From Gnetum montanum (Eukaryota; Plantae; Gnetophyta): a stretch of DNA of 64,000 nucleotides. Below the pieces are notes generated by a model, which was not told where the DNA came from, did no database searches, and saw only the letters and a program-made list of their open reading frames with translations. A program made the position numbers and the translations under genes. Location of the stretch: positions 460,875-524,874 of the forward strand of contig MNCI01000596.1 of assembly GCA_015680685.1 (NCBI GenBank), written 5' to 3'. Within the stretch, counting starts at the first letter, position 1. Each line of letters starts with the position of its first letter. Shown here in pieces: positions 7,046-63,383 of this stretch.

Positions 7046-7920
7046 TGATGAGCGGCAAGGTACCCCCTATGCCCAACCATGTGAATCACGGGTGTTCACA
7101 CGCAACTTGGTCGAATTCTATAGACTATAAGCACTTTGCATACACCAGACCTTAACTAGCAAAACCTTTTGTTAGAATGGTTTTTGTCTTCCCAACCTCA
7201 CTTGTGATTTTCTAATTGCAATGGTTAAGTAAGATTGAGGCAACTGATTTTTAAGGTTTTTTACTTTATCTTCTAACATCTAATTCTCAAAATGGAAAGT
7301 AAGGAATGAAATATTATGTAATCTACAATTACCCTAACCTATGTCCTAACTCTTCCTAGCATAAGTATCTGATCCCATCTTCCATGCACATCCTAAGCAT
7401 CCCCTAACCACTACTGGGTTACTAGACGTTAAGCGTCGCTGGGTTTCCAAGTGTTGGGTTTATGTTTGAGATGGTCATACATATGGCTTCTATGAACTAT
7501 ATAAAAGAGCGATAGTGATCAAAATAATCACAATAGAAACTTAAGAAATTATTAAAGCATAGAAATATTAAACTATTAAATGCATTAAATGACTAAGTCC
7601 AATTGCTACAAGGAATGCTTGAAAAGCTTATCTTTATTGTTGTTCACGCCAATGGGCTCAGGTACATCAACGCTCAAAAAAAGAGTTGGACACCTTTCTT
7701 ACACCTACTATGGGCACTTGGAAAATCTTCTAACTCTCGCAAAAAAAAATTGCAAGAGCTTCGCTACAACTGCCAAAAAGGTACCTAAGTGTGGCGGGAG
7801 CCCACTTATTTATAGGCCGAAATAGGCACCACGTAAAAAGGGCCACGTCGATGCATGTAAGGATGCGTCGACAGGGCCACGTCAACGTGGCCCCGTATAT
7901 GCAGCCTAGTAAATGCATCA
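7046..7920 (-). repeat. 5' LTR of element A
   Basis: TGATG...CATCA termini; TATAAATA at 7814-7807, about 105 nt from the start, as in B and C; U5 homologous to B and C. The start could alternatively be the TGATG at 8502. Confidence 0.7.
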
Positions 7921-37600: not shown

Positions 37601-40600
37601 TGGAAATTTTGTATCTTTTGGTAAGCCCATATGCATAAAGTCATTTGTGTGCACTCAAACCTATAGTTTGGGCTTGTTTTAGTAAGTGGTGTTGCATCAC
37701 ATGGTGTGCTGCCTCATGTGGTGCACTACCTCAAGAAGTGTGTTGCCTCACCTAGCTTGTCACCTCACCACTTCCGTTACAAACCTGAAATCTATAGATA
37801 CCCAAAGAAGAAAGCTCAAAATTATCATTTATTTTCCAATTCTCTTTATGTAACAGCTTCTCCTCCTCCTTGGGTAAGTGCGTAATTTATTTTCTTTAGT
37901 ATTTTTGAGTCATCACTTTGCCATGCAACGAGACTCTATCGAAGTGCTACCATGCCTTTATAGCCCAAAACCTTTTGGTCAATGCAAAGTCAAGTGTTTG
38001 CACAATGAATAAAGTACATTTTGATTTCTTTACATTTTCCAATTTTATTTTATTAAATCTTGACAAAGACATCTCATTAATGAAATTATTTGTTAAATTT
38101 AGAAATTATAATTAATTTAATTCCTTTAGATAAATTAGTGTAGTTGCGTGGAGCTTTGCGATGATGCCACCTTGCCCGAGGAGGTCATACTTGGATGGAA
38201 TAGTGTTGGGCCATCAAGGGTGACTGAGGAGCTTGCAACATGGTTTGTGTGTGTTTGGTTTCCACATTGCACCTATCTCATAAGGGATTGTAACGTGAAG
38301 GTGTGTTTTATTTCTTTTTAATGTGTGCAAATTACACCTGTCCCGCAAGGGATTGCAACAAGTTTGAATTATCATTTTATTCTTTACATTTATAAAATAC
38401 ATGAAAATTATAAAAATATCATTTCCCTACCATGGCAACATAGGTTTCTTCACTTGCATCATATGTATTATAATATTTCCATTTATTAAATGCAACAATA
38501 TACATATGTAAACTTTACCATTCACGTTCCCATCATCTTTGATATTTAGGACTGGTTCGCTATGCATACCATTGATAAACCTCTTGTGGTCTCTGCCAAT
38601 GGGAACCCCTATCATCTCTGTAGGACCAATGCAAATAGAAGTAGAATGGAAAAATATAGATATTTACCACATGTAGCATCATAGGCACCATCTTGCTCTT
38701 CACAATCACTCACAAATGAGCCAACTTGATGACCTCCAAGCTTTTACAGAACTTAAGTGAGGCCTCCTTGTGGAGCTTGAGCTTCTTAATAAGATCAGCC
38801 ATACTTGGGCCCATCAGCTCCAAAGTCTTCTTGGTCTCCTTCCATTCACACTCGCCCATCTTACTCAGCAAAAACCACCTAAACTTCGAAATAGACAATG
38901 CTCAACACTATGAACACCCACTAAACACCATAGCCAACCTTTAATAAGCACACTAATGCTGAAAGCGCTAAAGGAAACCAGAATCTCTAAGAAAGCATAG
39001 AGACTCTATAACACCAAAGGAAATCAATAAGTAAAATCTCATCAAACAAATTAGTACTATGGAATTTGGTACAGAACATAATCAGAGTGGATAAGCTAGA
39101 TATGAACTTCTTAATTCAGCTATTCCCCACACAAAAAGACTTAATTATTTGATGCAAAAAGTGTACACTATATGCTAAATATGGACTTCTTGAATCAGCT
39201 ACTCCCCAACACAAAAAGACTTTATTATTTGATGCAAAAAATGTAAGCCAACGACTCAAGGACTCCCAATTAACTCACCAGCCAACATGGACTAACGGCC
39301 AATTTCAAAACCTCTCAATCTCACTGCAATACACAATTTTAGTGTTTAATTTTGTTGGGCTGTTGTTCAACAGCTACAACTCAATCCCCTGCTACATCAC
39401 AGTGCTTTCTAGTCTATCACTACAGAGGTCCTCCGCTATGCTTTCTTTCTTATGCACTGTCTGTCATTAATGTTATTGACCCCTCTCTGTAAACGTTTCT
39501 TTTCTTTTCTTTTTCATTCTATCTCTACCAAAGCATACTTCCACAATGCTTTTACACAATGTCTTTAAAGCATAATGTCGCAACGCAACTCTTGGTGTAG
39601 GGATACATCATTTTGTTTTAAGTTAACAAACATGGCTTTTACAAAATTGATAAATTTCTTAATGTTAACAGTATTCTTTATTTTCTAAGTAAAAAGAAAA
39701 TAAGCCCTGCAACTAGGGATATACATAATGATGAGTTGATGACAACAATGATTACCATCATTGTGATGAGCATGGTGATGTTTTCTAACATTCATATACT
39801 CCAAAACAAAAGCTAGGATTGCATTTCCACTTTCCATGGACTATAATGCCATTTTTAAAGCAATCACAAACTGTCATTGGTTACGTAAAGAAATTGTACC
39901 ATAGACTTGATTGGTAAACTGCAAGGAAAAGGATGTCTCATTATTGAATGGTCATGGTCATAAACTATTCAGTGCATTCCTGCATTTATAATGAAACAGA
40001 AGGTGGAAGTCAATCAAATCATTTAATGTGTCTACCTGCTCAAATCTTTTAAAAAAAAAGAATAATCTGATTTTTTTTTACATTATTTTTATTTTTAAAT
40101 GTGAAATGAGCATCAAAAACAGTGCCATGGAACAATTACCGAAAATTAGTTAAGAGGTTGTGCAATTCTTCCTATTCACTTTACATTTTCCAGATAAATG
40201 TCAGCTGGTATAAGCTTTAACGAGAATGCTCATGATAAGAAATATAATAATTAACCTTTTCATAAAAATGAAAAGTTTTATCATAAAAATTTTCATCTGG
40301 AATGATAGTCTTGGAAGATTCTATAGTGCAACATGACAATTTAAAAAAACGATCCAACTTAAAGATAATAAGCTTACCTGATAAAAGAGTGCAGTTTTAC
40401 CTGCTCCACTTAAGCCAGTCAATAAAACCGTATTCAATTTCTTGCCCCTTGAAACTCTTATAACTGAAACCAGTCAACATATTTGAAAAAAAAAAATAAG
40501 AAGCCCTATCCATTGATATCAGTAATAAAATAAACCATCAAGCATAACCTAGATCTCTGTGACATTTTTACTGTGTGCGGGTCATTCAAAATTATGAATG

Positions 40601-43020: not shown

Positions 43021-43080
43021 CGGTAAGATTTTTTATTTTAAAGCTCTAAGTTAAGTTATGTGTTAGATTTTGGTGGACAA

Positions 43081-43272
43081 TACTGAGTTATAAAGTTCAT
43101 ATCTTCCAATGTACTTATACTACAATTATACTGAGTTATAAAGTTCATATCTTCCAATGTACTTATACTACAATTATACTGAGTTATAAAGTTCATATCT
43201 TCCAATGTACTTATACTACAATTATACTGAGTTATAAAGTTCATATCTTCCAATGTACTTATACTACAATTA
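43081..43272. repeat. Perfect 48-bp tandem repeat, 4 copies
   Basis: TACTGAGTTATAAAGTTCATATCTTCCAATGTACTTATACTACAATTA four times with no spacers. Confidence 0.95.
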
Positions 43273-44209
43273 TTTTCAAGGTTCCAATACCCGAATTACT
43301 AGGAAATGAGGAAAAAAAATAGGTCAAAGAGGAGCCACTATATAAAGACCATTTCAAGCCAATCTAACATTTGGTTAAAACCAAAGATTAATGTAGGGAA
43401 ATATAGCTGACCCACTTAGTAAAAGGATGTGAAATTTCTAATGAAAATTTATGGTAGACATCATGCAATTAGAGAGCAAGATAATATCTCAAAAATCTAA
43501 CTTAAACAATTAAAATAAAACTAAGGTCTACACTAAAGACAGACAACTATAAACATATTTATGCTAATTAAAGGGTATTAAAAACTACAAGTAATCCAAG
43601 CTAAGCATTATAACATAAAATTACATAAAATTCCAGATGCTAAAAAAACTATTCTTGGGAGGTAAAAACAAGAGGGAATGTTAGTCCATATAATTGAGTT
43701 AGAAAAATAAATTACAATTACCCCTTGAGGGATTTTGGAATCAAGTATCAAGTAGTTGGACAGCCATGCATAGGGGTTGCTACATCTTACCAAAATGTTA
43801 ACATCAAACAAACAACCAAAAAATAACAATTAAATAATAACGAATAGCCAAATGTCCAAACTAAAATTCCACTACCACGCAACCCAAATTTTAGAGGCTA
43901 GCATCCACTCTTAGTTTCAAATAAGGAGGGGTTGTAGGGGGTGGGGGGCAAGGAGGGTGGTGGGGGGTGTTGGAACTTGAAATAAGTGAAACATAGGTAC
44001 ACCTCAAAATTTATAGAAGTTTATAACTCAATGTTACCTAGTAAATTTGAACCTATGACTTACGCTTACCATGTACAAATTGGTACCACTAGGCTAACAT
44101 CTCATTATTTTAGTTCCACATATGATAAGTTTGGATGTTTACTCTTTGTACACAATGAGATTTTATTCAAATCAAACCAAACCAAACAAATACAAATCAC
44201 CTAAAGAAC

Positions 44210-45072: not shown

Positions 45073-47474
45073 CGAAGGTTATTAATTTGGAGTTTCTCCT
45101 CCTTGTAGTTCTCCTTTTGCTTTTATACTTTAAATTTTTATTTTTAATATATATATTTTTGGGGGTCTAACACTCAAAATCAAATATTATTGGATTAAAT
45201 TTTGGATAAGGTATTACATTAGCTTTTGCATGTTGGATTTTCTTCTCTGTCTTTGTGTGTTTGTTTGTTTGTTTTTTCTTTTTTTCTTTTTTTCTTTTTT
45301 TGGAGGGGGATGTGTTGAACCCGATATAAATAGATATATATATATATTAAAAATAAAAATCCAAAGTATAGAAGTAGAGGAGCACTGCAAAGAGGAGAAA
45401 CTCCAAATCAATAAAAAGAAAAGGCCTAACTATTTTGGAGATGTCTTTTTAGATTTTCACCCTTACAACCAATCATGAAAAACCTTCCCTGTGGTGTAGG
45501 AAATTAAACATTCAAAGAAAAAATTAACATCGAGTGGAGGGGAAGGAAATCCCTAGCTTGTCAATAGAATCAACATTATCAAAAGATATTATCTTCATAT
45601 CTTAACCAATAGCTACAAATGAACTAGTTAAAAATCATTTGGATTAACAATAGGATTTTATGAAACTTGAGGAACATATATTTGTTTTTTCTTAGTCATT
45701 GAAGAATTTTTTGAAATTGATTTCATTAGAACTTTCCTTGAAGATACATTATGTTGAACAACAATAAAAGAAAAGGGTGGGCTAACTATTGAAATGTTAG
45801 TAGAAGAAATCATCTCAAGATTTGCCCAAAAAGATAATCTGAGAGATCATATCAAAATATGATTCATAAGATTAACATCCTTGAAATAGAAAACAAATTA
45901 AATAATTATCATTAGTAACATGAACAAAATGGAAATTAGTATAACAAAAAATCTAACATGCAGAAACTCAAATAAAACATTAGATTTATTAAGAAATAAT
46001 CTCAAAGTAATTAATTAAATAAGTCATCACCAAAATGCATTCATATATGCATAACCTTAAGGAAACCAAACCTAAAAAGAAAACCATTCATAATAAATTA
46101 TAACACCTTTAAACCTATAAGCTCCTAGGTCAAGGGGTGATACTAATTACAAGTATTAAAAATTATAAATCACTACATAAAAATAATCTAAGTAATTACT
46201 ATTTTATTAGGATATAAAACAATAAATTGTATCTAAGCTAAAAGTATAAATAATAACTAGCTTAGGGGGAAATTCTAAACAAAAATCAAAACTAGTATGC
46301 TAGCATCCCCTTGGCAAAACAAATCTCACATGAGCAAGAAAAAGTAAATTCTATATCTAATAAAAATATTATTATCAACGCAATGATAGTAGTCCATTGA
46401 GCCAACAACACCAAATCATATGCTCTACACATAAATGAGAGAGTATGCTACCTAAGCTCATTAATCATCAAACCACAATGCATTGAGGATAACCAATTAT
46501 TAAAGCATTACATAAGTAACGGGCTTCTACACAAGGGCCATCAATCATATGAAAAAAATACACCCCAACCCTCACACCTTCCCTTCCCCACCTCCTCCAC
46601 ACCCTCATCAAAATAAATAAATAAATTTTTCCTTAGCAAATATCAATGGATCCACTTGCAAATATAAAAATATAAAAAAATATCCACATTGCCATCCTAC
46701 ACAATTATATCACATACAAAAAGTATAGTCAATACATCATCCATTAGCATCATTGTAGCCAATCCTTTACAAGAAGAAGATTTATAAATAGAAATGCTTC
46801 AAGGATTCTTGGCACTACTCTACTTGCCATCCTAATGATTAAGTAGATGATACACCCTAACAACTTGAAGATGATTTACAAAGCTACCCTTAGTGCATGT
46901 GGATTTCATCTTGCATTAAACATTAGTCATGAAACAAGCCATATAGACTAGCACACAACCCATAAAAGTCAAAGTAGAATCTCATATATATAAGAGATCA
47001 AATAAGAGTTCAATCTAACGTATAACTCGTTATTTACCAAAACTAAGCCACTACCACCACCCCAACACACATAAGTAATTACTTTGATAGCTAGCACTTC
47101 TCTCTCTATGTGCCATATATAAATTAGGTTGTCATGAGTACTTTATTAATTCATATTTTAATTGTAGATTTACTTCACCTTATAGTGTCATATTTCCTTG
47201 TTCCAATATTGAGTCTTTCATGCAATAGACTCATCTAATTTATTTATTCTTATTTATTATGAATTTGTCACACATCAAATTATTACCCTTGTAAAGTTAG
47301 GTCATGCTAAAGATCAAATCTAAAATCTTCCTCTTGCTCATGATGGAGCCTAGCATATGAGAGACATATTATTACAGCACAATGGGTGTGAATCTAATTG
47401 TCTCTTCAAGGATCTCTAATCTATTGATAGATGACTTTCTTAGTACTAAATCTGGAAATAATAACATAACATAG

Positions 47475-48275
47475 TGATGGGAAGCGATATCGCATAGGCC
47501 GCGATATCGCATCATTCCTTGCGATATCGCGTACAAGATATCGCAGCCCATTGCCTTGTTTATAAATAAGAGGCAACCTTCCCTTGTTTCTCCATCTAGA
47601 TCTAGACCCTTAGTGAAACTCTGGCAATTTTACCCTTCCAGAGATAGAATAATTTCCATGTGCCCGCAGTAGGAGTCTCAAAGTGAACAGATCTTTATTC
47701 GAGCAAATTTGTACTTGAGCACACATTTGTGTATGGAAATAAAGATGAACTTTCTGATAAACCTTATAGTGCATGGACTAAGCTAAATAGGACTTAATTA
47801 ATGTTAAATTTTTAAATGCTTTATTAGTTAATTAAATCTCTCTCAACCCTTAACTCCTACTTAAGTGCATTTAGTACAACCACGTCGGGCACGTGCATTA
47901 CGCGTGGTAACCCAGTAACGAATAGCGTTTGGTAATCCTAGTAGTGTTGCATTGGTTCAGGGTGTGAACAGTAAGTGGGACAGATACTGATGCCAGGGCA
48001 TTAGAACTTAGTTAATGAAAGTTAGTCACTTAGTCTCTTCACCCTTTCCCTCATTAGCATAGGCGATAAAAGAGAAAAGATATAAAAATCACATACCTCA
48101 AACTCATTTAACCATACAACCATGACAAATACAAGTGAGTTTGGAAAGACAATGATTGATTAACCTTAAGTGTTCCATAAGGCATGTAAGCACTTAATCT
48201 GCGAAGTTCGACCGGATCACTCGTGTAACGCTTGTATTCATATGGTTGAGTGTAGGGGTACCTCGCCACTCATCA
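47475..48275 (+). repeat. 5' LTR of element B (801 bp)
   Basis: TGATG...CATCA; TATAAATA at 47561; roughly 90-93% identical by eye to 53717-54511. Confidence 0.95.
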
Positions 48276-48276
48276 T

Positions 48277-48294
48277 TGGTGCCGTTGCCAGGGA
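48277..48294 (+). promoter_or_regulatory. PBS (tRNA-Asp type) of element B
   Basis: TGGTGCCGTTGCCAGGGA, 1 nt after the LTR. Confidence 0.9.
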
Positions 48295-48420
48295 CTAAGT
48301 TGTTTGTGCGCTAAGTAGAACATAGGAAAATATCCACATTGTTGGAAAGCTTAAACGAACCCTTAAGATTAATCAAAAGAAAATTTAAACAACAGTCAAT
48401 AGCACACCGACAAGATAAAA

Positions 48421-51400
48421 ATGTCTTCTTCTCCACACAAAAGCACTTCACCGCCTAGGACCAACACTAGAGAAAGTCGGCAGCACCACACACATAACCA
48501 AAATCCGCCAGTTCCTCAATAGTTCAGTGTGGTATATGTTCATCATGATGAATATATACCTGACTTTACCTTTGTCTTCCATCAAGATGAACAACTGTGT
48601 TGTAGAGACTTGGAGGGTAACATAGTGTTGCCTCTAGACAGAGCTACCCCCAACATGCTCCTTTGTGCCCTTGCACGAATTGGCATGTCAAAGTTATATG
48701 CTGAGTACATTGCGCTCGATTACAACATAAGGGACTACCATCCCACAGAAGCGCAACATCAATGGGACTCGTAGTAGGAGAGTTATTGCACATCATTGAA
48801 GGGCAAAGAACCCCATAATGCTTTGCCCATCATAAGAGAAATTAAAGGTGGTGAACCTATCTTAATAGGTTCTCCACAAAATGATGTTCCCCCTCCTAAC
48901 AATAGTGAGGAGGTGGTGTATTAGAACCTTCACTCCACGATACATAACCTTGGTTTTGATCCCCACGAACACCAAGTGTTTAATGAGGGAACACAAACAC
49001 AAGATAAGGGCGAGCATTTTGATCGTCATCACGATCGAGGACGGGATCATCGAAGGGAAGGTAGGAAACATCGTCATGGTGATGGTTCTCCTTCCTCTTC
49101 CCCTTCATCGCAACATTCACCCTCTCCTTCAACATCGGGACACAGTCACAAGGAAACTAGCCATGAGGACAAGAGTAAGCAAAATGAGAAACCTCAACGA
49201 GAGAGTCGAGAGCAAGGACGAGGGCATTCTAGGGAATCACGGCATGAAAGAAGGGAAAGTAGGGAACTGCGTAGACATCACAGATGTCATGAGAGAGACG
49301 ACCATGATGAACCCCTACTTGCAACCCGAAGTATGTTAGACATTACAGAGGCCGTTAAAATACCTACAAGGCACCAAAAAGATAGTCGGATTAAGAGACT
49401 AGACATGAATAATATCCCATGATTTGAGGGGGAATACAACGCTAATCCGTAGAATCATTTACAGGCATTTCACAATGCCTGCGCCTTGCAGAATATTGAA
49501 AATGAGTGGCAAAAATTAAAGTTGTTCCCAAGGACACTCATAAAAGAAGCGAAAAGCTGGTACCAGTCCTTAGAACCGGAAACCATTAGGAGGTGGAGTA
49601 CGATGCTAGAACTGTTTAATGATAAATATCAAACATACTCCGAAGTGTCCAACTTACAAAAATAGATCTAAGGATGGAAGCAGGGAACTCATGAATCCTT
49701 GGATGCTACCATGGGTAGATATTATGCATTGTTACATCGTTGCCTAGGCCATGGTTACGCACAACGGGATCAACTACGCCATCTCATAGATGGGCTAAGA
49801 CATGAAACCAGGAGAACCCTTAGAACATATGCCCAAGGGAGATTATCTGAACTTAGGTCCCATGAAGTTCATAGATTGTTGGAGCAAGTAGCTAAGGAAG
49901 AAGGAGAGCTATGTAAGAGAGAAAGCGCAGAAGAGTATAACTACGATCCTTCCCTCTGAAAGAGGGGAGTAAGATTCTATGAGGAGGAGGATGAGTCACC
50001 ACTCGAAGAGTTGGTGAGTAGGAAAACCTTGCCACTTTAGAAATTAACAACAGAAGTGTTGGCTAAGGTAGATCAAATGTGGGACTCCTTAGATAGTAGA
50101 TTTGAAACTGTTTTAAAAATCGTAGAGGAGTCTAAGGAGCGAAGTAGTGATCATGATAAGAAAAAGAAGAGGGATTTGGACTATGCATGTAACAAAGGTA
50201 AGGGCAAAATGACTATCACCGAAGAGGTTGTGGATTTGGATACAGACAATGACGGTGGATGTGAGATCTGCCAATATGACCATCCTAAGGGATGTTTCCC
50301 AATAATCTCACATCTACAAGATTCTGGGGTGTATGCACTCAACCCGAGACTTAACAAACGGCAAGCACCCCGTCGGTTACCTTATCCCCAAGGTAACCCG
50401 AGGCAGTTCCACCAACCATTAACATATTATCCAAGTGGAACTCCACCACAACCTATGGAGTAACACTAGTAGTGGCAATACCCATAGTCATGGGGGATGC
50501 CACCGCCAAGGCAACAATACCCTTATTGGCAACCAGACCCATATGGCTACTACATGCAGCAGCCAATCTCTCCACATGACTCTATTGGTCGTGTGACACC
50601 ACCACGTCACTACCAAGCTTGAGAGTATTATAGGATTCCTTCTCCCGGGAGAAACACACCACATGCATACCATCCTCTGACTCCATCCGCAACTCTTACA
50701 CCGATAGCTCCACTACCACCTACTCCAGCGATGCAAGGGGAACTCCCCACTCAACTACAGCAATGTAATGCTACGAGAGCTGTAAACCTTCAACTTGCTG
50801 CTGGTTCTGACAACCATAGAAAGAGAAGACCTTTCTTTAGAACCAAAAGCCCAAACAAGCTCTCATAACCACAAGTAATTAAGCCTTTAAACCCTCCTCC
50901 ATCAATTAAGGCTTCGGAGCTCCCTTCAAACCAATAACAGAGCTCAACGCATACAGNCCTCCATCAATTAAGGCTTCGGAGCTCCCTTCAAACCAATAAC
51001 AGAGCTCAACGCATACAGTTATGTTAACACATACCGTCATTGACTGGATCAAGGTGGGCCACCTTCCCAGGAAACTCTCTAATCCTGGAAGTCCCTTAAT
51101 CTATCTCCAAGTCACTGGGAATGGACCTTGTAAAGCTCTTCTTGACTCAAGTTCCAGAGTCAGCTTGATATTGCAAGAAATGTATAAAGCCTGGAACCTG
51201 CCTCCACTAAAGAAGAGTAATATTCGCTTAGAGCTGGCTGACCAGTCCATCACTATTCCCTTGGGATTGGTGGAGGACATCGTTACCACTGTGTGTGGTT
51301 GGTCATACCCAGTTGATTTCCTAGTGATCCAAGTAAACAATGACAAGGGTGACTTCCTAATAATAATGGAAAGGGCATGGCTAAGTACCATGAACGCATG

Positions 51401-51795
51401 CCTAGGAATCCATGATCTTTACCTAGAAATATCTAAGGAAAACACTTATGGAAAGATCAAGAAGAAGAAGGTTCCATGCATCACATATAGTGATATAGAG
51501 GGTGATAGCATACAGGAGCGTTCAACATCTCCTGCATGCAACCGGTGTGCCTAGGAAGTTAACATACAAAAGTGCCTATATGTAGCAACCACACAACAAG
51601 AGAACACCCAGTGGTTGAGAGCTAATCAAGAGAGCAACCCACCAATATGCATGGAACTAATTGGGGAACCAATGTGCGCTCATGTTGAAAGCATAGAAAC
51701 ATTGGAGCAAGAGTGTCGCCAACTTCCAACCCTTAACTTGAAAGCCCCAATTGGGAGGAGTTGGACACTTCTAAGAAATTCAAACAAGCACTCAC
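48421..51795 (+). pseudogene. Degenerate gag-protease of element B
   Basis: MSSSPH start, EWQKLKLFPRTLIKEA, CEICQYDHPKGC zinc-knuckle remnant, ALLDSSSRVSLI; multiple stops. Confidence 0.9.
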
Positions 51796-53700
51796 TATTT
51801 TGGATCTCTCCCTTTCAATTCAGTCATGGGGGAGATGGCCACCTATGCTGATCATTTGAGGCCCTTAGTTCTTTTTAAATTTTTGTTTCACACATTTTTG
51901 TTTTACAAATTTCTTTAACTTTTCTTATTTTTTTTTAAAACATCGTTTATACTTTTTCATTTCTTTGTGTGTTTGATTACTTTGTTTGATTTGTCACTTA
52001 TTAAGTGCTCCGAAGATGGTATGAACTGTATTCCATTGATTGCTAATGTTTGGTTTTTACCTTTAAGTTATGATGTTAATACGAAGGTATGGTTCTTTTG
52101 ATATAGTAGACAATGAGTCCACTTCATCCATACCTCCATAAAATTCTATGGTCTCTCTTGGCTTGGAACTGTACAAGTCCCTTTCTCAATAATAAGAACT
52201 ATCAACGAATCGGTGACTGGGTATTTCTCAAACTAAGGAAGGACTCAAGGATTGAAAAGGGTGTGACTTCGGGGGGATTTGATGCACTTGTGTTGGCCAT
52301 TCTCTTGGGTGCTTAGATGTTTTCTTCTTGAGTTTTCTTACCATTTCGACATTGCCGCATTATCGAGAAGCTGAGCAAATAAAAATAATAAGTCTTTGCA
52401 TGGTGTGGTTCTCACGCAAAAACACAAAAAAAAAAAAAACAGTGAGAATTCAAAGCACGCTCCTTAGATGAAATAATCATTTGGGCTACAAGCACTAGTT
52501 ATGGAACTAAAATAAATATGTTCCCTTCTCGCTTCCTACTCTCTCCTCCTTTGTTTTGTTAGAATGGTGGTGGCTCTTTGATGAAGGCATTCTTGTTACT
52601 TCCAATGGATGGATGGGCCGAATGTATTAATGCAAACTCACTGCATGTGTTTTGTTTGAGGCTGAATTTGGAATGGGATATACTAAGTCACATTAACCAT
52701 TAATACACAAAGGGCTATACATCACCTTGTTCTTGAGATTCCATTCTATTCTCTTCTTTCCATCCTTCTTTCCTCATTTATCAGCTCATTGACGATTGTA
52801 TCTGTAGTTCATATTTTTGTGGATGCATTGTTTTCTTTTTGGTAAATTCTTGTGGTTAAGACTTTAACTCTTGTCTCCGAATGACATTCTTAGAGCCTAC
52901 AGACTCTTTGAATGTGGGATTGTTAGGGCATTAAGAGCATGAGCCTACTTTGGGGAGGACCCACTGGCATTCCTATTTGGTGCATTCGTTAATTTCTTTC
53001 CCTTAAACATTTTTGCAATTAACATTTATTTGTTCATCTCCATCTTTGACATCCATTTTATTGACATGGTCGTTGTCTCTTTTTATTCATCTTTCTTATT
53101 CCTTCTCTTTTTCCATTCTATTGCTATCGAAGGTTCGCTCTCAGTCATGGGGGTCCTGGTCCAATTTTTTTGATTTTCTCCTAACCCCTACACCTCGAGT
53201 AGCCACCAATATTATATCTCCAAATCCGTATCAGCCATATCACAACTCAACCAATGGACCTTACACTGAGGCAAGGTATTAACTACATTGTGATTCATTT
53301 ACCCTTGCTAATATTAGACTGTGTTGTGTGTGTAGATAGCAATCATACAACAACAGACTGGATCTGGAGGAAACACTTGGAATGAACTAGTGTTGAAGTA
53401 GTTATGCAAGGAACGAGATTGATGGTGCGCTTATGGATGGACAACAAAAGATGCAATCTTGGCGTTCGCAGTAGCAAACTTCTTCTTTTCTCTCTCTCTT
53501 CTCTCTTCTCTCTCAGCTGCCAAATAAGGCTGGATGTCAATTATGTATAGTGTTCACTCTTGTTGTCATAAACACTCGATTTTGCCATGTATTGTAATGA
53601 TGATCCGTTCACATGTCATCCCATTCACCATTAGTTCCATTTAAGTCAATAATCTCATACCTTCCCAATATTTTGTAAGGAACTCAAGGAAGAGTTTTTA

Positions 53701-53716
53701 TTCAGTCATGGGGGTA
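53701..53716 (+). promoter_or_regulatory. PPT-like motif before the 3' LTR of B
   Basis: TTCAGTCATGGGGGTA directly abuts the LTR TGATG; the same motif precedes the LTR of D. Confidence 0.8.
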
Positions 53717-54511
53717 TGATGGGACGTGATATCGCATAGGCCGCGATATTGCGTACGCGATATTGCGTATGCGATATTGCAGCCCGTCGTCTTGTCCATA
53801 AATAAGAGGAAGCTTTCCCTTGTTTCTTCATCTAGATCTAGACCCTTAGCGAAACTCTGGTAGTTTTACCCTTCCAGAGATAGAATAATTTCCATGTGCC
53901 TACAGTAGGAGTCTCAAAGTGAACAGATCTTTATTCAAGCAAATTTGTACCTGAGCACACATTTGTGTACGGAAATAAAGACAAACTTTCTGATAAACCG
54001 TGCAGTGCATGGACTAAGCTAAATAGGACTTAATTAATGTTAAATGTTTAAATGATTTATTAGTTAATTAAATCTCTCTCAACCCTTAACTCCTAGTTAA
54101 GTGCATTTAGTATGACCGATTCGAGCATGTGCATTACGCTTGGTAACCCAGTAACGAATAGCGTTTGGTAATCCTAGCAACATTGCATTGGTTCAGGGTG
54201 TGAACGGTAAGTGGGACGAATATTGATGCTAGGGCATTAGAACTTAGTTAATGAAAGTTAGCCACGTAGTCTCTTCACCCTTTTCCTCATTAGCATAGAC
54301 GATAAAAGAGAAAAGATATAAAAATCACATACCTCAAACTCATTTAACCATACAACCATGAAAAATACAAGTGAGTTTGGGAAGACAATGATTAATTAAC
54401 CTTAAGTGTTCCATAAGGCGTGTAAGCACTTAGTCTGCGGAGTTCAACCAGATCGCACGTGTAATGCTCATATTTGTATGGTTGAGTGTAGGGGTACCTC
54501 GCCACTCATCA
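53717..54511 (+). repeat. 3' LTR of element B (795 bp)
   Basis: Direct repeat of 47475-48275, followed by the TSD CATAG. Confidence 0.95.
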
Positions 54512-56159
54512 CATAGCAATGCAACATGAGCCCTTTAAAAATAGAGTTCACCACATATCAAATGCTCAAATCAAAGAATTAGAGCATACAAACATTAAAG
54601 TAAGAACATGGAATAAATCAAAATATAAATATTGAATGTAAGTTTTTTGGTATATGATACACATCGAAGATACACATATATATCCAAACTTGATTGGATG
54701 AAGAAACTACACCCAATTCCATTACATGCCCATGATACTTATCCTTCCAACCTGAGAAAGCAACAATATCCAAGTTTCAACCTTCATTCATGGCACCTAA
54801 CATAATCTTTCAAATATATTACCTTGTCATAACTCACCTAACTGACACATGCCTTATTCAAATTCTAATCACAAGTACTAAGCATGTACTTGTGTACCAC
54901 TATTCTTTCTCTATGCCTACATGAATAAAACAAAGTCATATAATAGTATTGCAAGAATCTATATTTTACTTATTTCAACTATAACTATTACAAAGTCTAC
55001 ATTTGGTCATCAATCAATAGCCATTATGGCACTTTCTACAATCTAGTGACTATCATAACACTATCGGCTCATCAACATTACATTAATAACTAAGATCAAT
55101 CACCACTTACTATCATGGTGACATCCTTACATATGACACCACCCTTGAGTTCCAAGTCAGTAAGGAAACAAGGGAAGAGTCAAGATGAACTATACCTTAG
55201 TGTTCATAACACCACAAGAGAGCCATGACACCTATTAAATAATGGTTACAAGTGTACCAAGTATGCCTTAGGAAACATGCATACATGATGACCCAAGTCA
55301 TACACATGCACATACATGGGGTACACCACAGCACAACATGATGTAAGACATCACAACAAGACAACAAGAACTAATCTTATGTAAGCCACATCCAATCCTA
55401 TGTCCCTGCTTCATAGATAAGAGGTAGTGCTCAAGCCTCAAAGCCAAAGCCCCTCTGCAATCCTACATATCCTTGTGATACTGTTCACAAGGAATAAAAC
55501 AATGTAGTTCTATAGGGATTGTTATTGACGGTTAAGATAGCATAGAACCTATAAGAATCTCCACATTCATCTGACCCTCATTTTAGAGAGAAAAAACCTT
55601 TAAATCACCAATAAGACATGCTTTCTTATGCTCTCCCCTACTTGAAAAAAGTGATGCCCTTAAAGCTTAAGTCTTTTTTCATTCATTTTCCAAATATGAA
55701 GAACACATTAGACATTGAGGAAAATTAAATAACTAAAAGCCCATTTGATAGTTCCATACAAAAAGGTCCAAGGACTAGGGTTATTCAACCATAAAACACA
55801 AAATTTAAACTCAAATTAACATCCAAAAAAGACTTAGAGATGTTTATGCAACTTGGATTAAGGAAGAAAAAGTTTATATTTTTTCATGTAAACTATACCA
55901 ATCTTTCTACCGAGAGTGAAATATATTTGCTTAACATGCAAGCTAGTTTTCTACCTTTGACAATGATACGAGACTGTAGAGTTAATTCTCTACATTCAAG
56001 GGAAGGCTACCTTATACCTTAAGAGAACCACTTCCCATGCCTAGAGAAATCTTGACACTAGCTTCAATAGGGATCTTTGGAACTTTAGCCTTATTGTGAC
56101 ATCATTCAACTCCTTAATTTAGGAGAAACATATTGGTTCTTCACATCTTAGAAGTGGTC

Positions 56160-57278
56160 TGATGAGACACAGATTGCACAAGCCATGATATCGCGTACGC
56201 GATATCGTGTACGCGATATCGCAGCCGCCGCGATATCGCATCCCCTGCGATATCGTGTACGCGATATCGCGTCTCTCCATGTGATATTGCGTACGCGATA
56301 TCGTGGTCCGCCGCCATATCTATAAATAAGAGGCGGCACTCCCTTCATTTCCCAATTCTGGCTAGAAGTAGCGAAGCTCTGGCAGTTTGAACACTCTAGA
56401 GTTAGATTAATTTCCCATGTGCCCGCAGTAGGAGTCCTAGAGTGAACGACTCTTTATTCAAGCAACTTTGTAGCCTGAACACAAGTTGTGTACGACAATA
56501 AAGATGAACTTGATTGGGTAAACCTTGCAGTACATGGTTTTATTTTGTTGTTATTTATTGCTTTCCTAGTGCACACGAGTACGACTTGATTACGAGCATC
56601 TACGGATGTGTACGGCTAATCAAGGAATTGGCTACTCGTCGCAACGCGTGAGTATGACTTGATTACGGGCATTGTGATTGCTTGGTAACCTAGTACCATA
56701 TCCCAGGATCTGCACTTGGTAATCCCAGTGGTAGTCCAATGTGTACGGCTGGTCAAGGAATCGGCTACTCATCGCTAGGCTAGAACGTGTGATAAGTACG
56801 ACTTGGCTACGAGCACCCACGGGTGTGTACGGCTAGCCAAGGAATCGGCTGCTTATCACACTTAGGCTAAATAGGTGCCTCAGTACGACCACTTCGAGCA
56901 CTTGCGTTACGTGTGGTGATCCCAGTAACGATTAGCGTTTGGTAGCCACAGTTGCATAGTTCAGGGTGTGTCCGGTAAGTGGGAACGGATGCTAACGCTA
57001 GTTAATTTAGACTTAGGACATTAGTTAGAGTTAGTTAGTTTCTCAACCCTTTCCCTCATAGCTTAGGAGATAAACTGAAAAATACCAAAAAAATCATATA
57101 CCTTAGACTTGCTTAACCATACACTGTGACACATACAAGCAAGCCTGGGAAGACAATGAACGATTAACCCCAAGCGTTCCTTGTGACGTTAAGGCATTTA
57201 GTTTACGCAGTTCAATCGGATCGCGCGTACACGCTCATATTCGTATGGTTGAGTGTAGGGGTACCTCGCCACTCATCA
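56160..57278 (+). repeat. 5' LTR of element C (1119 bp)
   Basis: 7-bp terminal inverted repeat; TATAAATA at 56321; homologous to the B LTRs plus an internal ~290-bp hairpin-repeat expansion. Confidence 0.92.
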
Positions 57279-57279
57279 T

Positions 57280-57297
57280 TGGTGCCGTTGCCAGGGA
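57280..57297 (+). promoter_or_regulatory. PBS (tRNA-Asp type) of element C
   Basis: TGGTGCCGTTGCCAGGGA. Confidence 0.9.
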
Positions 57298-57420
57298 TTA
57301 AGTGTTTTTATGCCAATTGAACATAAGGGATATCACTCACATCATTGTGAGCTTTAAACGAACCTTAGGGTTAATCAGTTAATTAAGAACATAACTAACG
57401 ATAAATAGCACACCATTAGG

Positions 57421-60400
57421 ATGGCTTCTTCTCATGAAATCAACTCACCTAAGGACAACACAGGAGATGGTCAGCATCAGACGCATAGCTCAGACCAGCC
57501 ATGTCCTAAACAATCTAAGGTCACATATACTCATCCTGATGAGTATGTCCCTGACTTTACTTTTATTCTCCATCAAGATGAACAACTGCGATGGAGAGAT
57601 CTGCAAGGTAACATCGTGTTACTCCCAAATAGATCTACCCCTAACATGCTTTTCCATGCCTTAGTACAGATTGGCATGCAAGAAATGTTTGTGGAATACG
57701 TTCTGGATGATTATGACATGAGGGATTATCATCCCACAAATGCCCAAGGTATTCGGGACGAAAGGCAGGAGAGCCAACATTCATTGTTGAAGGGCAAGGT
57801 CCCCCATGTCATTAGTTAAATAGGAGACGAGGAACCCCTCACAATGGGTTTCTTAGAAAATGATGTTCCTCCTCCTCACTCTGGTGAAGTGGTAAAGCAT
57901 CAGGGCCTTCGATCAACTGTACATGCTACAGGCTCTGATCCTCGTGAGCACCAACTATTCATGGCAGGAACAACTACTCACACTAAGGACAGACACTTAG
58001 ATCGTCACAACGATTAGGGCCAAAGCAGCCGAAGAGAAGGTAAGAAACATCACCACGATGATGGATCCCTTTCCTCTTCTCCTTCATCTCACCATTCACA
58101 CTCTCCTTCCACATCTAGGTGCAACCATCGTGAGCATAATGGAGAAAGTAAAAGTAAAAGGGAAGATGAAATACCTCGACAAGAAGGTCGAGAGGAGTTA
58201 GGACAAGGGCAAGGACGTAGGGAGAGTAGGGAACCACCACGAAGACATCACAGACGTCATGAAAGAGATGATCATGATGAACCCCTACTCACAACCCGAA
58301 GTATGCTTAACATAACAGAGGTAGTTAGGATTCCCACAAGGCATTTAAAGGATAGTCAGATCAAGCGATTAGACATGAACAACATCCCACGATTTGAAGG
58401 GGGATACAATGCTGATCCGCAAAATCATTTGCAGGCATTCCACGATGCCTGTGTCTTGCAAAAAATTGATAGCGAGTGGCAGAAGCTCAAGTTGTTCCCA
58501 AGGACACTCATCAAAGAAGCAGAGAGCTGGTACCAGTCCTTAGAACCAAAAACCATCAGGAGGTGGAGTACGATGCTTGAATTGTTCAATAACAAATATC
58601 AAACGTACTCTAGAGTGTCCAACTTGCGTAAGCAGATCCAAGGCTGGAAACAAGGTGCTTATGAACCCTTGGATGTTGCCATGGCCCATTACTATACATT
58701 GCTACATCGTTGCCCGGGCCATGGGTACGCTAAGCGGGATCAACTTCGCCACATCGTGGATGGGCTAAGAAATGAAACGAGAAGAACTCTTGGGACTTAC
58801 GCCCAAGGGAGACTCTCCCAAATAAGAGCCCATGAAGTTGAAAGCTTGTTGGAACAAGTAGCGTAAGAAGAAGGTGAGCTACGGAAGAGAGAAAGTGCAG
58901 AAGAGTACAATCGCGATCCCTCCCTTCGCAAGAAGGGAGTGAAATTCTGTGATGAGGAGGATGAGTCACCACTCGAAGAGTTGATGAACCAGAAAACCTT
59001 GCCGATCCAAAAGTTAACAACAGAAATAGCGGCTAAGGTAGACGATGTATGGAGTTCCTTAGAATCTAAAATAGAAACAGTTTTAAAAATCGTAGAAGAG
59101 TCTAAGGTAGAGCAAAGTAGTGACAAAGGCAAAACCAAGCGGAGAAACTTAAACCCTGCACATAACAAGGGTAAGGGAAAAATTCCTATCTCCGATGAGG
59201 CTGTAAATTCTGATTCAGACAATGATAGTGGATGTGAGGTCTGTTACTATGACCATCCTATGGGATGTTGCCCAATTATCTCACATCTGCAGGAGTCTGG
59301 GGTGTATGCGCTAAATCCAAGACTTAATCAACGACAAACACCCCAAAGGTTACCTTATCCACAAGGTAACCCAAGGAAGTTCCACCAACCACTAACATAT
59401 TATCCAAGTGGAATGCCTCCATAGCCCATTGGACAACACCAGCAGTGGCAATACCCACAGTCATGGGGGATGCCACCGCCAACACATCAATACCCTTACC
59501 AGCAGCCCGATCCTTGTGGTTATTATGCTCAGCAGCCAGTTTTTGTAGGTGACTCTACGGTCATAAAACCTCCATGTTACTACCGAGTTCAGGAATATTT
59601 TAGAATTCCTTCCCCTTCGGGAAACACCACATACCCACGATATCCTCCAGACCCATCCGCACCTCTTACGCCGATGGCTGCACCACCAACTACCCCAACA
59701 AAGCCCAGAGTAAATCCCACTCAGCCACGACAACCCAACACTGCGAGGGCCCCTAAGCCTTCAATCTCGGTTGGTTCTAACAATCGTTCACCAAAAAGAG
59801 CCTTCCTTAGGACCAACAATCCAACTAAGCCTTCGCCCTCACAAGCAGTTGGGCATCCTAACACTCCCACAACTAACGCGGTTTCGAGAAATCCTCCAGC
59901 AGCGAAATCATGTCCAATGCATACAGTTATGTTAACACATACAGTAACTGACTGGATCAAAGTTGGCCACCTTCCAAAGAAATTATCAGATCCAGGAGTC
60001 CCCTTAGTTTACCTTCAAGTCGCTGGGAATGAACCCCATAAGGCTCTTCTTGATTCAGGTTCCAGGTTTAACTTAATCTCACAAAAATTGTACAAGACCT
60101 GGAACCTGCCTCCACTCAAGAAGAGCAACGTTCGCCTCGATTTGGCTGACTAGTCCATCACTATTCCTCTGGGACAGGTTGAAGACATCGTTACAATTGT
60201 CGGTGGATGGTCATATCCAGCCGATTTCCTAGTGATCGAAATAAATAATGACAAAGGGGATTTCCCAATTATCATGGGAAGGGCATGGCTAAATACAATC
60301 GACGCCCACTTAGGAATTCATAACCTTTCCCTAGAAATATCCAAGACAAATACGTTTGGGAAAATTGAGAGGAAAAGAGTTCCATGCATCGCATATAGTG

Positions 60401-63040
60401 ACACAGGGTGTCATTGCGTGAAGAAATCATGGGTAATGCAAAGTTTAACATTGCTTGCATGCGATCGGTGTGCACAGGATATTAATATACAAAAGTGCCT
60501 ATATGCAACAGCCACATAACAAGAAAACACCCAGTGGCTAATGGCTGATAAGGATAGTGACCCGACTACCTGCCTGGAACTAGCTGAGGGAATAACTAGT
60601 GCTTACTTGGAAAGCACAGACATATTGGAGCAAGTCCGTTGCCAACTTCCAGCCTTTAACTCCGAAAATATTAATTGGGGGAAGTTGGAGATTCCAGAGG
60701 AGTTTAAACAAGAACCCCTAGAGTTAAAATCATTACCCACTGGTCTAGAATACGTGACCCTCAAAAAATGGAAAATCGATGATCATCAACGCAAAGCTCA
60801 TGCCCACGCAAAAAGAAAGTTTGCTAAGGATGATAAACAAGTGGTTCACTGCCTTTGCTTGGTCATACCCTGAACTAATTGGAATAGATCTGTGGATATG
60901 CTAGCATAGGATCTATACAGACCCCTCTATGAAACCTCGTAAACAATCCCAGAGGCAACTGAACCCAAAACTAAAGCAAATAGTAAAAGAGGAGCTAGAG
61001 CAACTTCTCAAGGCTGGGTTCATTTACCCTATCGCTGACAGCGAATGGGTTAGCCCTCTTGTCATCATACTGAAAAAGGGAGATAAGTGGAGAGTATGTA
61101 TAGATTTTAGGCTATTAAATATGGCAACATTCAAAGACCATTTCCCATTGCCATTTGTGGACCAAGTCTTAGACACTATAGCAGGGCATCGCTATTACAG
61201 TTTTCTGGATGGATATAGCGGATACAACCAAATACGCATTGCACCAGAAGACCAAGCCAAAACAACGTTCACCAGTCCCTGGGGAACGTTTGCATATAAA
61301 CAAATGCCTTTCAGTTTGTGTAATGCACCTGCCACGTTCCAACACTTACTTCTAAGTATTTTTCAACAATAAATAAGCAATGGAGTAGAAGTCTTCATGG
61401 ACGACTTCTCCACTTATGGAATGAACTTTGATCAAGCTCTCAACCGGTTAGAGCAAGTATTGAAACGATGTGTTGAAACCAACCTTAAGCTCAACTGGCA
61501 AAAGAGCCATTTGATGGTTCAAGAGGGCATCGTGCTGGGGCACAAAATTTCGCAATCAGGAATCGAAGTTAACTCAGAAAAAATTAAAGTCATCCAAAGA
61601 ATCACTTGACAACCAGAAATCGTTAAAGATGTGAGGTCATTCCTTGGACACACTGGCTACTATAGGAGGTTTATTGCAAACTTTTCAAAAGTTGCCAAAC
61701 CGTTGGTGGAATTAACAAAGAAGGATGCACCATTCGAATGGACCAGGGAATGTGAACAAGCATTCCAAGCTCTTAAACAAAGGCTTGTGGAAACTCCCAT
61801 TCTATAGGCACCTGACTGGTCCAGACCATTCCATATCATGACCGATGCATCTAATTATGCTTTAGGAGCTGTATTGGCATAATTAGATGAACAAAAACAA
61901 CCTTATTACATCCATTGTGCTAGTAAAAGTATTACCGGTGCACAACTTAACTACACAACTACAGAAAAAGAATTAATGGCTGTTGTGTTCGCACTGGATA
62001 AATTTAGGCACTATGTATTGGGTTACAAGGTATATATCCACACAGATCATAGTGCAATTAGGTTCCTTATGAATAAGCCCATGGTTAGCCCACATATCAT
62101 ACGTTGGCTCGTGATTCTTCAGGAGTTCGACTTAACTATTGTAGACCGCAAGGGCACCGAGAACATCGTCGCCGATCACCTATCTCGGTTACGATGGGAC
62201 AACAAAGAGGACGAATACGCAGTATCTGACCATTTTCCTGATGAGACCCTCTTTGCTGGTGTAATAAATAATCAACCCACGGAAGTAAACTGGTATGGCG
62301 GCATTCTCACTTATCTCACCTCACAACAATTACCATAGAGATTAGACTTTAGGAAGAAACAACAGTTCCTTCACAACATCAAATACTTTATGGAAATCGG
62401 GGGACAACTCTATAAAGTCTGCCCCGATGGCCTAGTTCGATGGTGTGTACCCGATCAAGATCAATTAAAAGTCCTCTAGGATGCTCATGAGGGCCCTTGT
62501 GGTGGTCATTATGCGGGGAGATGAACGGCCGCTAAAATCCTGCTTGCAGGATATTATTGGCCAACACTATTTCAGGATGCCCATCACTTTGCTCAATCCT
62601 GTGAGCGCTGTCAACGTGATGGGGGAATGACTGCTAGGATGGAGGGTCCACAACAATGGATTCAACCTTTAGAACCCTTTGACATTTGGGGGATTGATTT
62701 CATGGGACCGATTACACCAATGTCCAACGGAAAAGCATATATAATTGTTGCTGTTGATTATTTAACCAAATGGGCTGAAGTAGCCACCGTAACAGATTGC
62801 ACATTAGCTACAGCTGCCCGATTTGTACAGCAACAAATCATTAACAGGTTTGGTGTACCACGTGCACTTATTTCTGATAATGGAACACATTTTACAGGAG
62901 CAACCTTTAGAAAGTTGATGCAACGCTTAGGGGTTGAGCATAAACTAACCCCACCTTACCACCCCCAAGCTAATGGTCAAGCTGAAGTTACTAATAGGGA
63001 GATTACCAGAATATTAACACGAACAATTAGCAAATTTAGG
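57421..63040 (+). pseudogene. gag-pol of element C, with in-frame stops and one frame change at ~60765
   Basis: Gag core, CEVCYYDHPMGCC knuckle, PR ALLDSGSRFNLI, RT WVSPLV...CIDFRLLN...FLDGYSGYNQI...FMDDF, RH TDASNYALGAVL...YTTTEKEL, INT CGGHYAG...WGIDFMGP...ISDNGTHF...YHPQANGQAE. Confidence 0.95.
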
Positions 63041-63383
63041 NNNNNNNNNNNNNNNNNNNNNNNNNNNNNNNNNNNNNNNNNNNNNNNNNNNNNNNNNNNN
63101 NNNNNNNNNNNNNNNNNNNNNNNNNNNNNNNNNNNNNNNNNNNNNNNNNNNNNNNNNNNNNNNNNNNNNNNNNNNNNNNNNNNNNNNNNNNNNNNNNNNN
63201 NNNNNNNNNNNNNNNNNNNNNNNNNNNNNNNNNNNNNNNNNNNNNNNNNNNNNNNNNNNNNNNNNNNNNNNNNNNNNNNNNNNNNNNNNNNNNNNNNNNN
63301 NNNNNNNNNNNNNNNNNNNNNNNNNNNNNNNNNNNNNNNNNNNNNNNNNNNNNNNNNNNNNNNNNNNNNNNNNNNNNNNNNNN
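63041..63383. other. Assembly gap (343 N) covering the integrase C-terminus of C
   Basis: Run of N. Confidence 1.

Follow-up and report, generated by a model that had tools for sequence, protein, structure and literature searches.

Repeated hairpin units in a plant Ty3/gypsy LTR: a probable, lineage-restricted RNA structure with a possible role in packaging

The window, that is the whole stretch of 64,000 nucleotides analysed here, is plant DNA full of decayed retroelements. In the 5' LTR of one of these, element C, we found a module of four hairpin units. As judged from sequence, this is a real structured unit of a plant retrotransposon LTR which is restricted to its lineage and has not been catalogued so far; we infer its function. 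The unit is very probably a selected RNA structure. Our leading, still tentative reading, drawn by analogy, is that the module is a lineage-specific structured cis-element, possibly a packaging signal that binds Gag.

The four stem-loops predicted for the leader of LTR C are present and were segmented by coordinates between 56575 and 56996 (Table 1). The units share a common order, in which helix P1 is followed by an internal loop with CGA opposite GA(N)NCGGN, helix P2, a loop with CGA opposite GNNCGGN, helix P3 and an apex, the latter being a YACG tetraloop in C1 and C3 and an apical domain of 62-68 nt in C2 and C4. The minimal form, represented by C1 and C3, has 65-75 nt and retains only the two loops. 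All stem pairs named in the original prediction (CTTGATTA/TAATCAAG, CTTGGCTA/TAGCCAAG, CCACTT/AAGTGG, GCATC/GATGT and GCACC/GGTGT) are correct, as are the closing loops c(UACG)g and c(CACG)g of the first and third copies. The layout said to be shared by all four copies holds with small departures for C1 to C3, while C4 is only a loose fit, with GTCCGGT and GAACGGA as its 3' loop strands. Of four TGG-TRAYCC-YAG motifs, two are exact and two are off by one position. The asymmetric CGA/GNNCGGN loop was described as kept, and lopsided loops indeed persist in all seven units (four in C, A5 and A3 in the two LTRs of element A, and one in element D). The distance of the module from the TATA-like box at 56321 was also given correctly (254-672 nt). 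Using a descriptor of the three-helix, two-loop layout, which was derived from the same units, we found the seven homologous units and one other site in the window; the mean over 30 shuffled windows, which served as control, was 0.3.

Table 1. Positions of the hairpin units and of associated features in the window
Feature	Position	Strand	Remarks
5' LTR of element C	56160..57278	+	1119 bp, TGATG...CATCA ends; sequence inspection
CpG-rich palindromic GCGATATCGC repeats	56187..56305	.	5' of the TATA box, putative U3; also in both LTRs of A
TATA-like box TATAAATA	56321..56328	+	conserved in A5, A3 and D
Predicted poly(A)-signal hairpin, TCTTTATT paired with AATAAAGA	56451..56504	+	would mask the AATAAA-like signal at 56497
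Counterparts of the poly(A)-signal hairpin	47691-47745; 53927-53981; ~7685-7630	the last on -	consensus fold of four LTRs
Unit C1, short form	56575..56639	+	P1, CGA/GAATTGGC loop, P2 (8 bp), CGA/GTACGGC loop, P3, UACG loop
Unit C2, long form	56648..56772	+	base of the C1/C3 type, apical rod with two GGTAA(T)CC motifs
Unit C3, short form	56787..56861	+	including outer stem; core 56792-56856; CACG loop
Unit C4, long form	56879..56996	+	counterpart of the single unit in A and D, from comparison only
Module positions differing in the family	56573, 56634, 56655, 56668, 56678, 56696, 56702, 56751, 56902, 56994
PBS of C, TGGTGCCGTTGCC...	57280..57297	+	same site in A, D and conifer loci
Broken gag frame of C	57421..59424	+	three internal stops and another stop at the end
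Broken pol of C (RT, RNase H, integrase)	60905..63040	+	domain matches
Element A	47476-54511	+	flanked by a target duplication (CATAG); retains its two LTRs, PBS and gag
Single long unit in 5' LTR of element A (A5)	47870..47991	+	LTR comparison
Single long unit in 3' LTR of element A (A3)	54106..54227	+	LTR comparison
Single long unit in LTR of element D	7361..7484	-	stem sequences differ, pairing kept

For the large domain of the long units, a rod that brings the two TGG..CC motifs opposite each other is a better model than separate small hairpins, being preferred by the alignment fold as well as by the energies. The predicted rod consists of two G-C pairs, a symmetric loop of the UAAY/UAAY type, two C-G pairs, an A-U pair and a terminal ACG-N5-CGU hairpin. 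A tRNA-like cloverleaf was dropped for this domain, since in each of the five long units its energy is less favourable than that of the rod, by 2-6 kcal/mol. Several known motifs were compared with the unit and rejected. A kink-turn has tandem G-A and A-G pairs next to a bulge of three nucleotides, while the 3' loop strands of the unit have CGG where GA is needed. The sarcin-ricin or bulged-G motif has AGUA opposite GAA in non-canonical pairs; both words are present here, yet AGUA pairs with UACU or UGCU and the neighbouring pairs are compensated. A likeness to a tetraloop receptor, a T-loop or the translation element of barley yellow dwarf virus was rejected on sequence.

Paired changes in the stems are the main sign that the structure has been selected. 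Helices P1 to P3 of the seven units comprise 92 Watson-Crick cells, 15 G-U and 4 mismatched ones, and P2 occurs in four different sequences of 6 or 8 bp, every one of which pairs. Between C1 and C3 all 20 pairs are kept and 5 are compensated, which a random placement of the 11 changes matches with P 2e-4. C4 and D differ by 14 changes in 26 pairs, with 4 compensated pairs (P 0.044), while compensation between A and D was not significant (P 0.15 and 0.33) and no pair is compensated between A and C4. The shuffle control for covariation was borderline, with 18 of 500 for C1 to C3, near the floor for two sequences, and for the long unit 22-44 of 500 as a rod and 52-105 of 500 as a cloverleaf; these values come from few copies and from structures derived from the very sequences tested, and related sequences beat such shuffles even without structure.

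The copies of the family add to this picture. Among the 40 of 272 difference rows listed, there are ten module positions at which most family contigs differ from the C copy. Eight of them lie in modelled pairs, and at seven of these the letter commoner in the family keeps (four) or restores (three) the pair; at 56902 it loses a terminal U-G pair that is unpaired in A and D too. At the two loop positions the commoner letter matches the CGA of the other units. Moreover, the non-conserved G-U pairs point to the sense strand as the one that would fold: G-U outnumbers A-C there by 9 to 1 (P 0.02) when the conserved first pair of P3 is left out, and by 7 to 1 (P 0.07) when shared cases are counted once. 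In the decayed copies C4 and D, 12 of 20 loop columns are kept, which is no better than in the stems (19 of 29). The loop differences between these two are mostly at CpG, which would fit decay after insertion. Overall, the paired changes, the G-U bias and the ranking of the models speak for a selected, modular structure, as in the original prediction, and for the sense strand, while the formal covariation is borderline.

Folding of single sequences was strong for C3, moderate for C1, weak for C2 and absent for C4 (folding-energy z -4.7, -2.1, -1.2 and +0.8, respectively), and the whole module of 436 nt reached -0.9. Within the whole predicted leader, the mean pair probability of the modelled helices was 0.83-0.98 for C3, 0-0.35 for C1 and C2, and 0 for C4. 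By these models C3 is the only unit which folds robustly both alone and in the whole leader, and the fold of C4 is without support from energy. On the antisense strand C1 and C3 fold too, while the long units do not.

The unit is older than the amplification seen in element C. One long unit each is found at the equivalent LTR place in A5, A3 and D, thus three copies across two related elements. A covariance model built from C4, A5, A3 and D gave as its next matches C2 (E 5.7e-6), C3 (0.0035) and C1 (0.069), none of which was in the training set, and the next-best match in the 64 kb had only E 1.6; all these E-values are rough. Since C1 to C3 rank directly behind the training set, they are further copies of the unit, two of them truncated, and the module is the amplified form of a unit which related LTRs have once. 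Contigs of the family also contain joints that skip units 1 and 2, from 56569 to 56795 (4 contigs in 2 runs) and from 56570 to 56792 (4 contigs in 3 runs), as well as joints in the reverse order, which connect the end of C3 with C1; over the upper part of C2 the summed depth is much lower. These signs suggest a variable number of units within the family, with the qualification that cross-mapping between similar units can produce them too.

From its sequence, element C is a Ty3/gypsy element of high copy number, which has decayed and is related to the elements of conifers. Its domain order of gag followed by RT-RNase H-integrase, its TG...CA LTR ends and its PBS are those of a Ty3/gypsy element. 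The PBS is of a type which we take to be Athila-type, and this type is the sole basis for the lineage label. The gag frame matches Retrotrans_gag (PF03732, E 1.5e-10) and encodes a single CCHC-type knuckle (CX2CX3HX3C, residue 605), the zinc knuckle looked for in a Gag that recognises a packaging signal, and an Arg/His-rich patch. An N-terminal extension of about 350 residues ahead of the Pfam domain (57421-58250), with Ser/His-rich and Arg/His-rich patches, had no Pfam match; the long extension is conserved in A (65% over the frame) and in D (47%). With conifer proteins, among them a named one from Cryptomeria japonica and PITA entries (presumably Pinus taeda), the RT of C shares about 70% identity, which makes a gymnosperm host probable; with the RT of element D, which lies on the minus strand, it shares 81%. 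In the tree C and D form their own clade (support 100/98), separate from conifer and angiosperm rows. Element A has LTRs that match LTR C at about 75% and differ from each other at 72 of 794 sites; it lacks the RT-RNase H-integrase part (~60716-63383 in C) and is a possible non-autonomous derivative. The family of C is represented by 85,580 to 134,464 contigs per run in four DNA runs labelled as four organisms, and loose ends accumulate past 57278, the border of LTR C, in all four.

The module is situated between the conserved AATAAA hairpin, on its 5' side, and the PBS, on its 3' side. Of the eight pairs of the poly(A) hairpin, all are kept in C, A5 and A3 and seven in D, and its upper stem is changed on both sides, while in the single-sequence fold of C the hairpin is weak (0.05). 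In the consensus fold, the four LTRs also share a longer helix around this hairpin and a small 5' hairpin. Moreover, three LTR sequences share a U5 stem and a domain enclosing the PBS (57100-57310 in C, with counterparts in A and D), and of the 69 pairs predicted there, 19 have changed on both sides within this set of three. The words TTTGTA and TTGTGTA, which we take to be plant upstream elements of poly(A) signals, stand immediately 5' of AATAAA. If cleavage occurs about 25-35 nt past AATAAA, the R/U5 border would be near 56520-56535 and the module would therefore belong to U5. It had originally been assigned to R/U5; a place in U5, behind the conserved AAUAAA hairpin, is more likely than one in R. 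The tandem GCGATATCGC/GTAC palindromes of element A (47484-47546 and 53728-53784) resemble those upstream of the TATA box in C, and such palindromes attract weak matches to microRNA models. The observed/expected ratio of CpG is 1.13 in LTR C and 0.29 in positions 1-46000.

We propose the following course of events for the packaging reading. Transcription would begin near 56350, and cleavage in the 3' LTR near 56520-56535 would leave the module only at the 5' end of the element RNA. The units would fold as three-helix hairpins, the long ones as rods, and a protein would recognise the CGA/GNNCGGN loops and the symmetric GG-UAAY-CC loop. This protein may be the element's own Gag, which would thereby help to select and package the full-length RNA. 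In the lineage of C, the unit would then have been duplicated, and two copies would have lost the apical domain and been closed with stable YACG loops, so that the loop sites were multiplied. A unit that is confined to the 5' end, acts on the sense strand, conserves its loops and can be repeated is most simply explained as a site to which a protein binds and which is required in cis.

Gag is the leading candidate for the partner because the frame of C has the CCHC knuckle and the Arg/His-rich patch, and Arg-rich patches like this one are of the kind that binds such internal loops. Two known systems argue in the same direction: in the sections available of one article, the cis-signals of Ty1 and Ty3 are located at the RNA ends and packaging of Ty3 needs the zinc finger of Gag (PMC4974528), and in excerpts of another the CaMV leader is described as carrying a packaging signal on a stem-loop that binds the coat protein (PMC5902531). 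The packaging regions of retroviruses, Ty1 and Ty3 have, like C, a cluster of hairpins in a structured 5' leader near a poly(A) hairpin and a PBS domain, as well as a Gag with a CCHC knuckle; the conserved structure in the rest of the C leader likewise recalls retroviral leaders, which have a poly(A) hairpin and a PBS domain. Many retroviral packaging signals are located 3' of the PBS, whereas the module of C lies 280-700 nt 5' of it, which we count against packaging. In contrast to psi and the MuLV regions, it also lies inside the LTR, comprises one to four units, has no strong loop palindrome and shows no similarity to them in sequence or in Rfam. By analogy, the evidence would fit a host factor as partner as well as Gag, and the binding of Gag is a proposal.

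It is unlikely, though worth considering, that the same RNA structure recruits host factors for the export or stability of unspliced RNA, in the way of CTE, RTE, MTE or the CaMV leader. CTE-type elements are rods with repeated internal loops, and the unit, like CTE (MPMV), RTE (IAP), MTE (MusD) and RRE/RcRE, is a rod-shaped RNA in which conserved internal loops recur. The CTE, RTE and RRE families are included in Rfam, yet the module has no Rfam match; moreover, no Rev-like gene was seen, and the module would have its place in U5. According to PMC8421220, the structured 5' leader of CaMV is an export enhancer which binds the TREX adaptors ALY1, ALY3 and MOS11. The available parts of a review state that export of plant LTR-element RNA has not yet been studied directly, which leaves room for such a role, and also that plants do not use the NXF1 receptor on which CTE, RTE and MTE depend (PMC12786077).

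The leader of CaMV and RTBV resembles that of C: both are long leaders of plant retroelements, rich in short upstream frames, in which a stem contains a poly(A) signal and stem-loops may offer binding sites for coat protein or TREX. The viral leader forms one large stem-loop, whereas C has separate, repeated hairpins with a fixed internal-loop motif. A control of gag translation by the module across the predicted leader of 1071 nt with its 10 upstream AUGs, via ribosome shunting or internal entry, is improbable in our view. The leader contains 10 short upstream frames, some of whose AUGs may be later mutations because the copies are decayed. One frame of 11 codons (56534-56569) ends immediately 5' of unit C1, which is the layout of a CaMV-type shunt as described in excerpts of PMC5902531; the same excerpts hold that shunting depends on the strength of the stem and not on the sequence of loops, and no frame, as read by eye, ends right before the single unit of element A, so that the short frame before a stem is seen in C only.

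The hairpins may also have arisen, or function, at the level of DNA, as amplified factor sites with a GTAC core whose palindrome arms were homogenised by template switching, with no role of the RNA. We regard this as distinctly unlikely, even though GTAC, with a density of 2.2 per kb in the window as a whole, reaches 13-16 per kb in LTR C and in the module, GTACGG is found three times in C1 to C3, and the GTAC cores are presumably SBP-box sites. Where P2 and P3 have compensated pairs between C1 and C3, three in all, the changes are transitions throughout, and the ability of C1 and C3 to fold on both strands would fit as well. However, C4, A and D are without GTACGG at that place, copying of arms would erase the lopsided loops that persist in all seven units, the G-U bias favours one strand, and the long units have no antisense fold.

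That the module, acting with the poly(A) hairpin and a splice-donor-like GGTAAGT of C4, helps to suppress cleavage at the poly(A) site of the 5' LTR seems very improbable to us. The module does lie 70-500 nt 3' of the signal and would be present only at the 5' end of the RNA, a donor-like CG|GTAAGT occurs at 56975 in C4 and in A3, and foamy viruses reportedly use a U1-based suppression. This word is absent from D and from C1 to C3, is part of stem P2 and, at one per kb, is near chance. Least probable of all is that the module starts dimerisation of the RNA through near-palindromic GGUAACC and YACG loops, like the four stem-loops of MuLV, or is catalytic. Its two tetraloop hairpins of the ACG type and two near-palindromic hairpins recall SL-A to SL-D of MuLV, which likewise include two hairpins ending in NACG loops; in the sections available of PMC5874298, the kissing hairpins SL-C and SL-D have conserved GACG tetraloops. 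In the units the tetraloops are UACG and CACG, not GACG, and occur only in C1 and C3, being absent from A and D; the apical loops overall are UACG, CACG, AAUAG, AUUAG and CUUAA. The self-duplexes of GGUAACC reach -2.8 to -12.2 kcal/mol, which is unremarkable, as 294 of 938 13-mers of the leader reach -6 or lower. A catalytic fold, also suggested from the first inspection, found no support, and there was no match to a ribozyme family in Rfam.

An Rfam search of positions 46000-58000 agreed with the view that the module belongs to no known RNA family: all 8 matches at E up to 5 lay outside the module and were to microRNA-precursor models, with scores far short of the gathering thresholds. A weak MIR159 match in element A (50965-51150, minus strand; 33 bits against a gathering score of 74) is probably due to chance. 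Other structured RNAs are known from plant LTRs, namely the 5S RNA in Cassandra and the hammerhead in the LTR of retrozymes. Like these, C carries a defined structured RNA inside the LTR; it differs in having no 5S or hammerhead match in Rfam and in being a gag-pol element of the autonomous type. The module resembles the structured leader elements of retroviruses and pararetroviruses, and none of the defining tests that were run assigns it to one of them.

Beyond the window, neither of the two unit models matched any of 78 RT-related metagenome loci under default filters, the loci having come from the best 80 of 409 that were confirmed and most being too short for an LTR. Seven of the 78 which were chosen for their LTR sequence yielded nothing better than E 1.9 with the filters off. 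Pattern scans for LTR ends and units returned no stretch in metagenome contigs or GTDB genomes, and the full unit layout no stretch in viral contigs, among which there was also no RT relative; 49 viral stretches with a looser pattern of two motifs are taken as chance. Conifer LTRs share only the PBS with LTR C. As no copy was found in these more distant relatives, the role of the unit is either specific to the lineage or met otherwise there. A literature match for UGGUAACCCAG proved to be an unrelated antisense oligo, as judged from the matching part of PMC10254303. We found no description of this element in the literature searched; the LTR may be present in gymnosperm repeat libraries.

Cis-acting RNA signals for packaging or export have been mapped for retroviruses, Ty1/Ty3 and CaMV, while export of plant LTR elements is, in the parts of PMC12786077 available, described as not directly studied. 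The single long unit of the sister lineages, the four units of C and the minimal form of 65-75 nt together provide a natural series. The minimal unit is a small RNA suited to probing, structure work and pull-downs, and the very large family would allow a real test of covariation. It is possible, if on balance doubtful, that the CGA/GNNCGGN loop is an undescribed protein-binding motif and the unit a packaging or export signal that plant Ty3/gypsy elements can stack; C would have multiplied it from one to four, with two copies trimmed to minimal YACG hairpins, and so gained an edge over sister lineages in the competition for Gag or for export factors of the host. If the loop is such a new motif, this would also define a new RNA family.

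A few observations do not concern the unit itself. In six of nine loci (L051, L052, L056, L063, L066 and L083) a GGGCCC palindrome is found 500-1000 nt 5' of the PBS; the nine are those with 1.2 kb ahead of a PBS-like site, and they include several near-identical copies and one doubtful PBS. This palindrome, which is absent from LTR C, is a candidate dimerisation site of conifer-type elements. Within the window, positions 9648-11453 hold a divergent RT-integrase region of another Ty3/gypsy lineage, about 25-27% identical to conifer polyproteins. A further repeated element, unrelated to the LTRs of A, C and D, is present at 26971-28345 and 37770-39632 in pieces which are 71-84% alike, and a 48-bp unit occurs in four exact tandem copies at 43080-43273.
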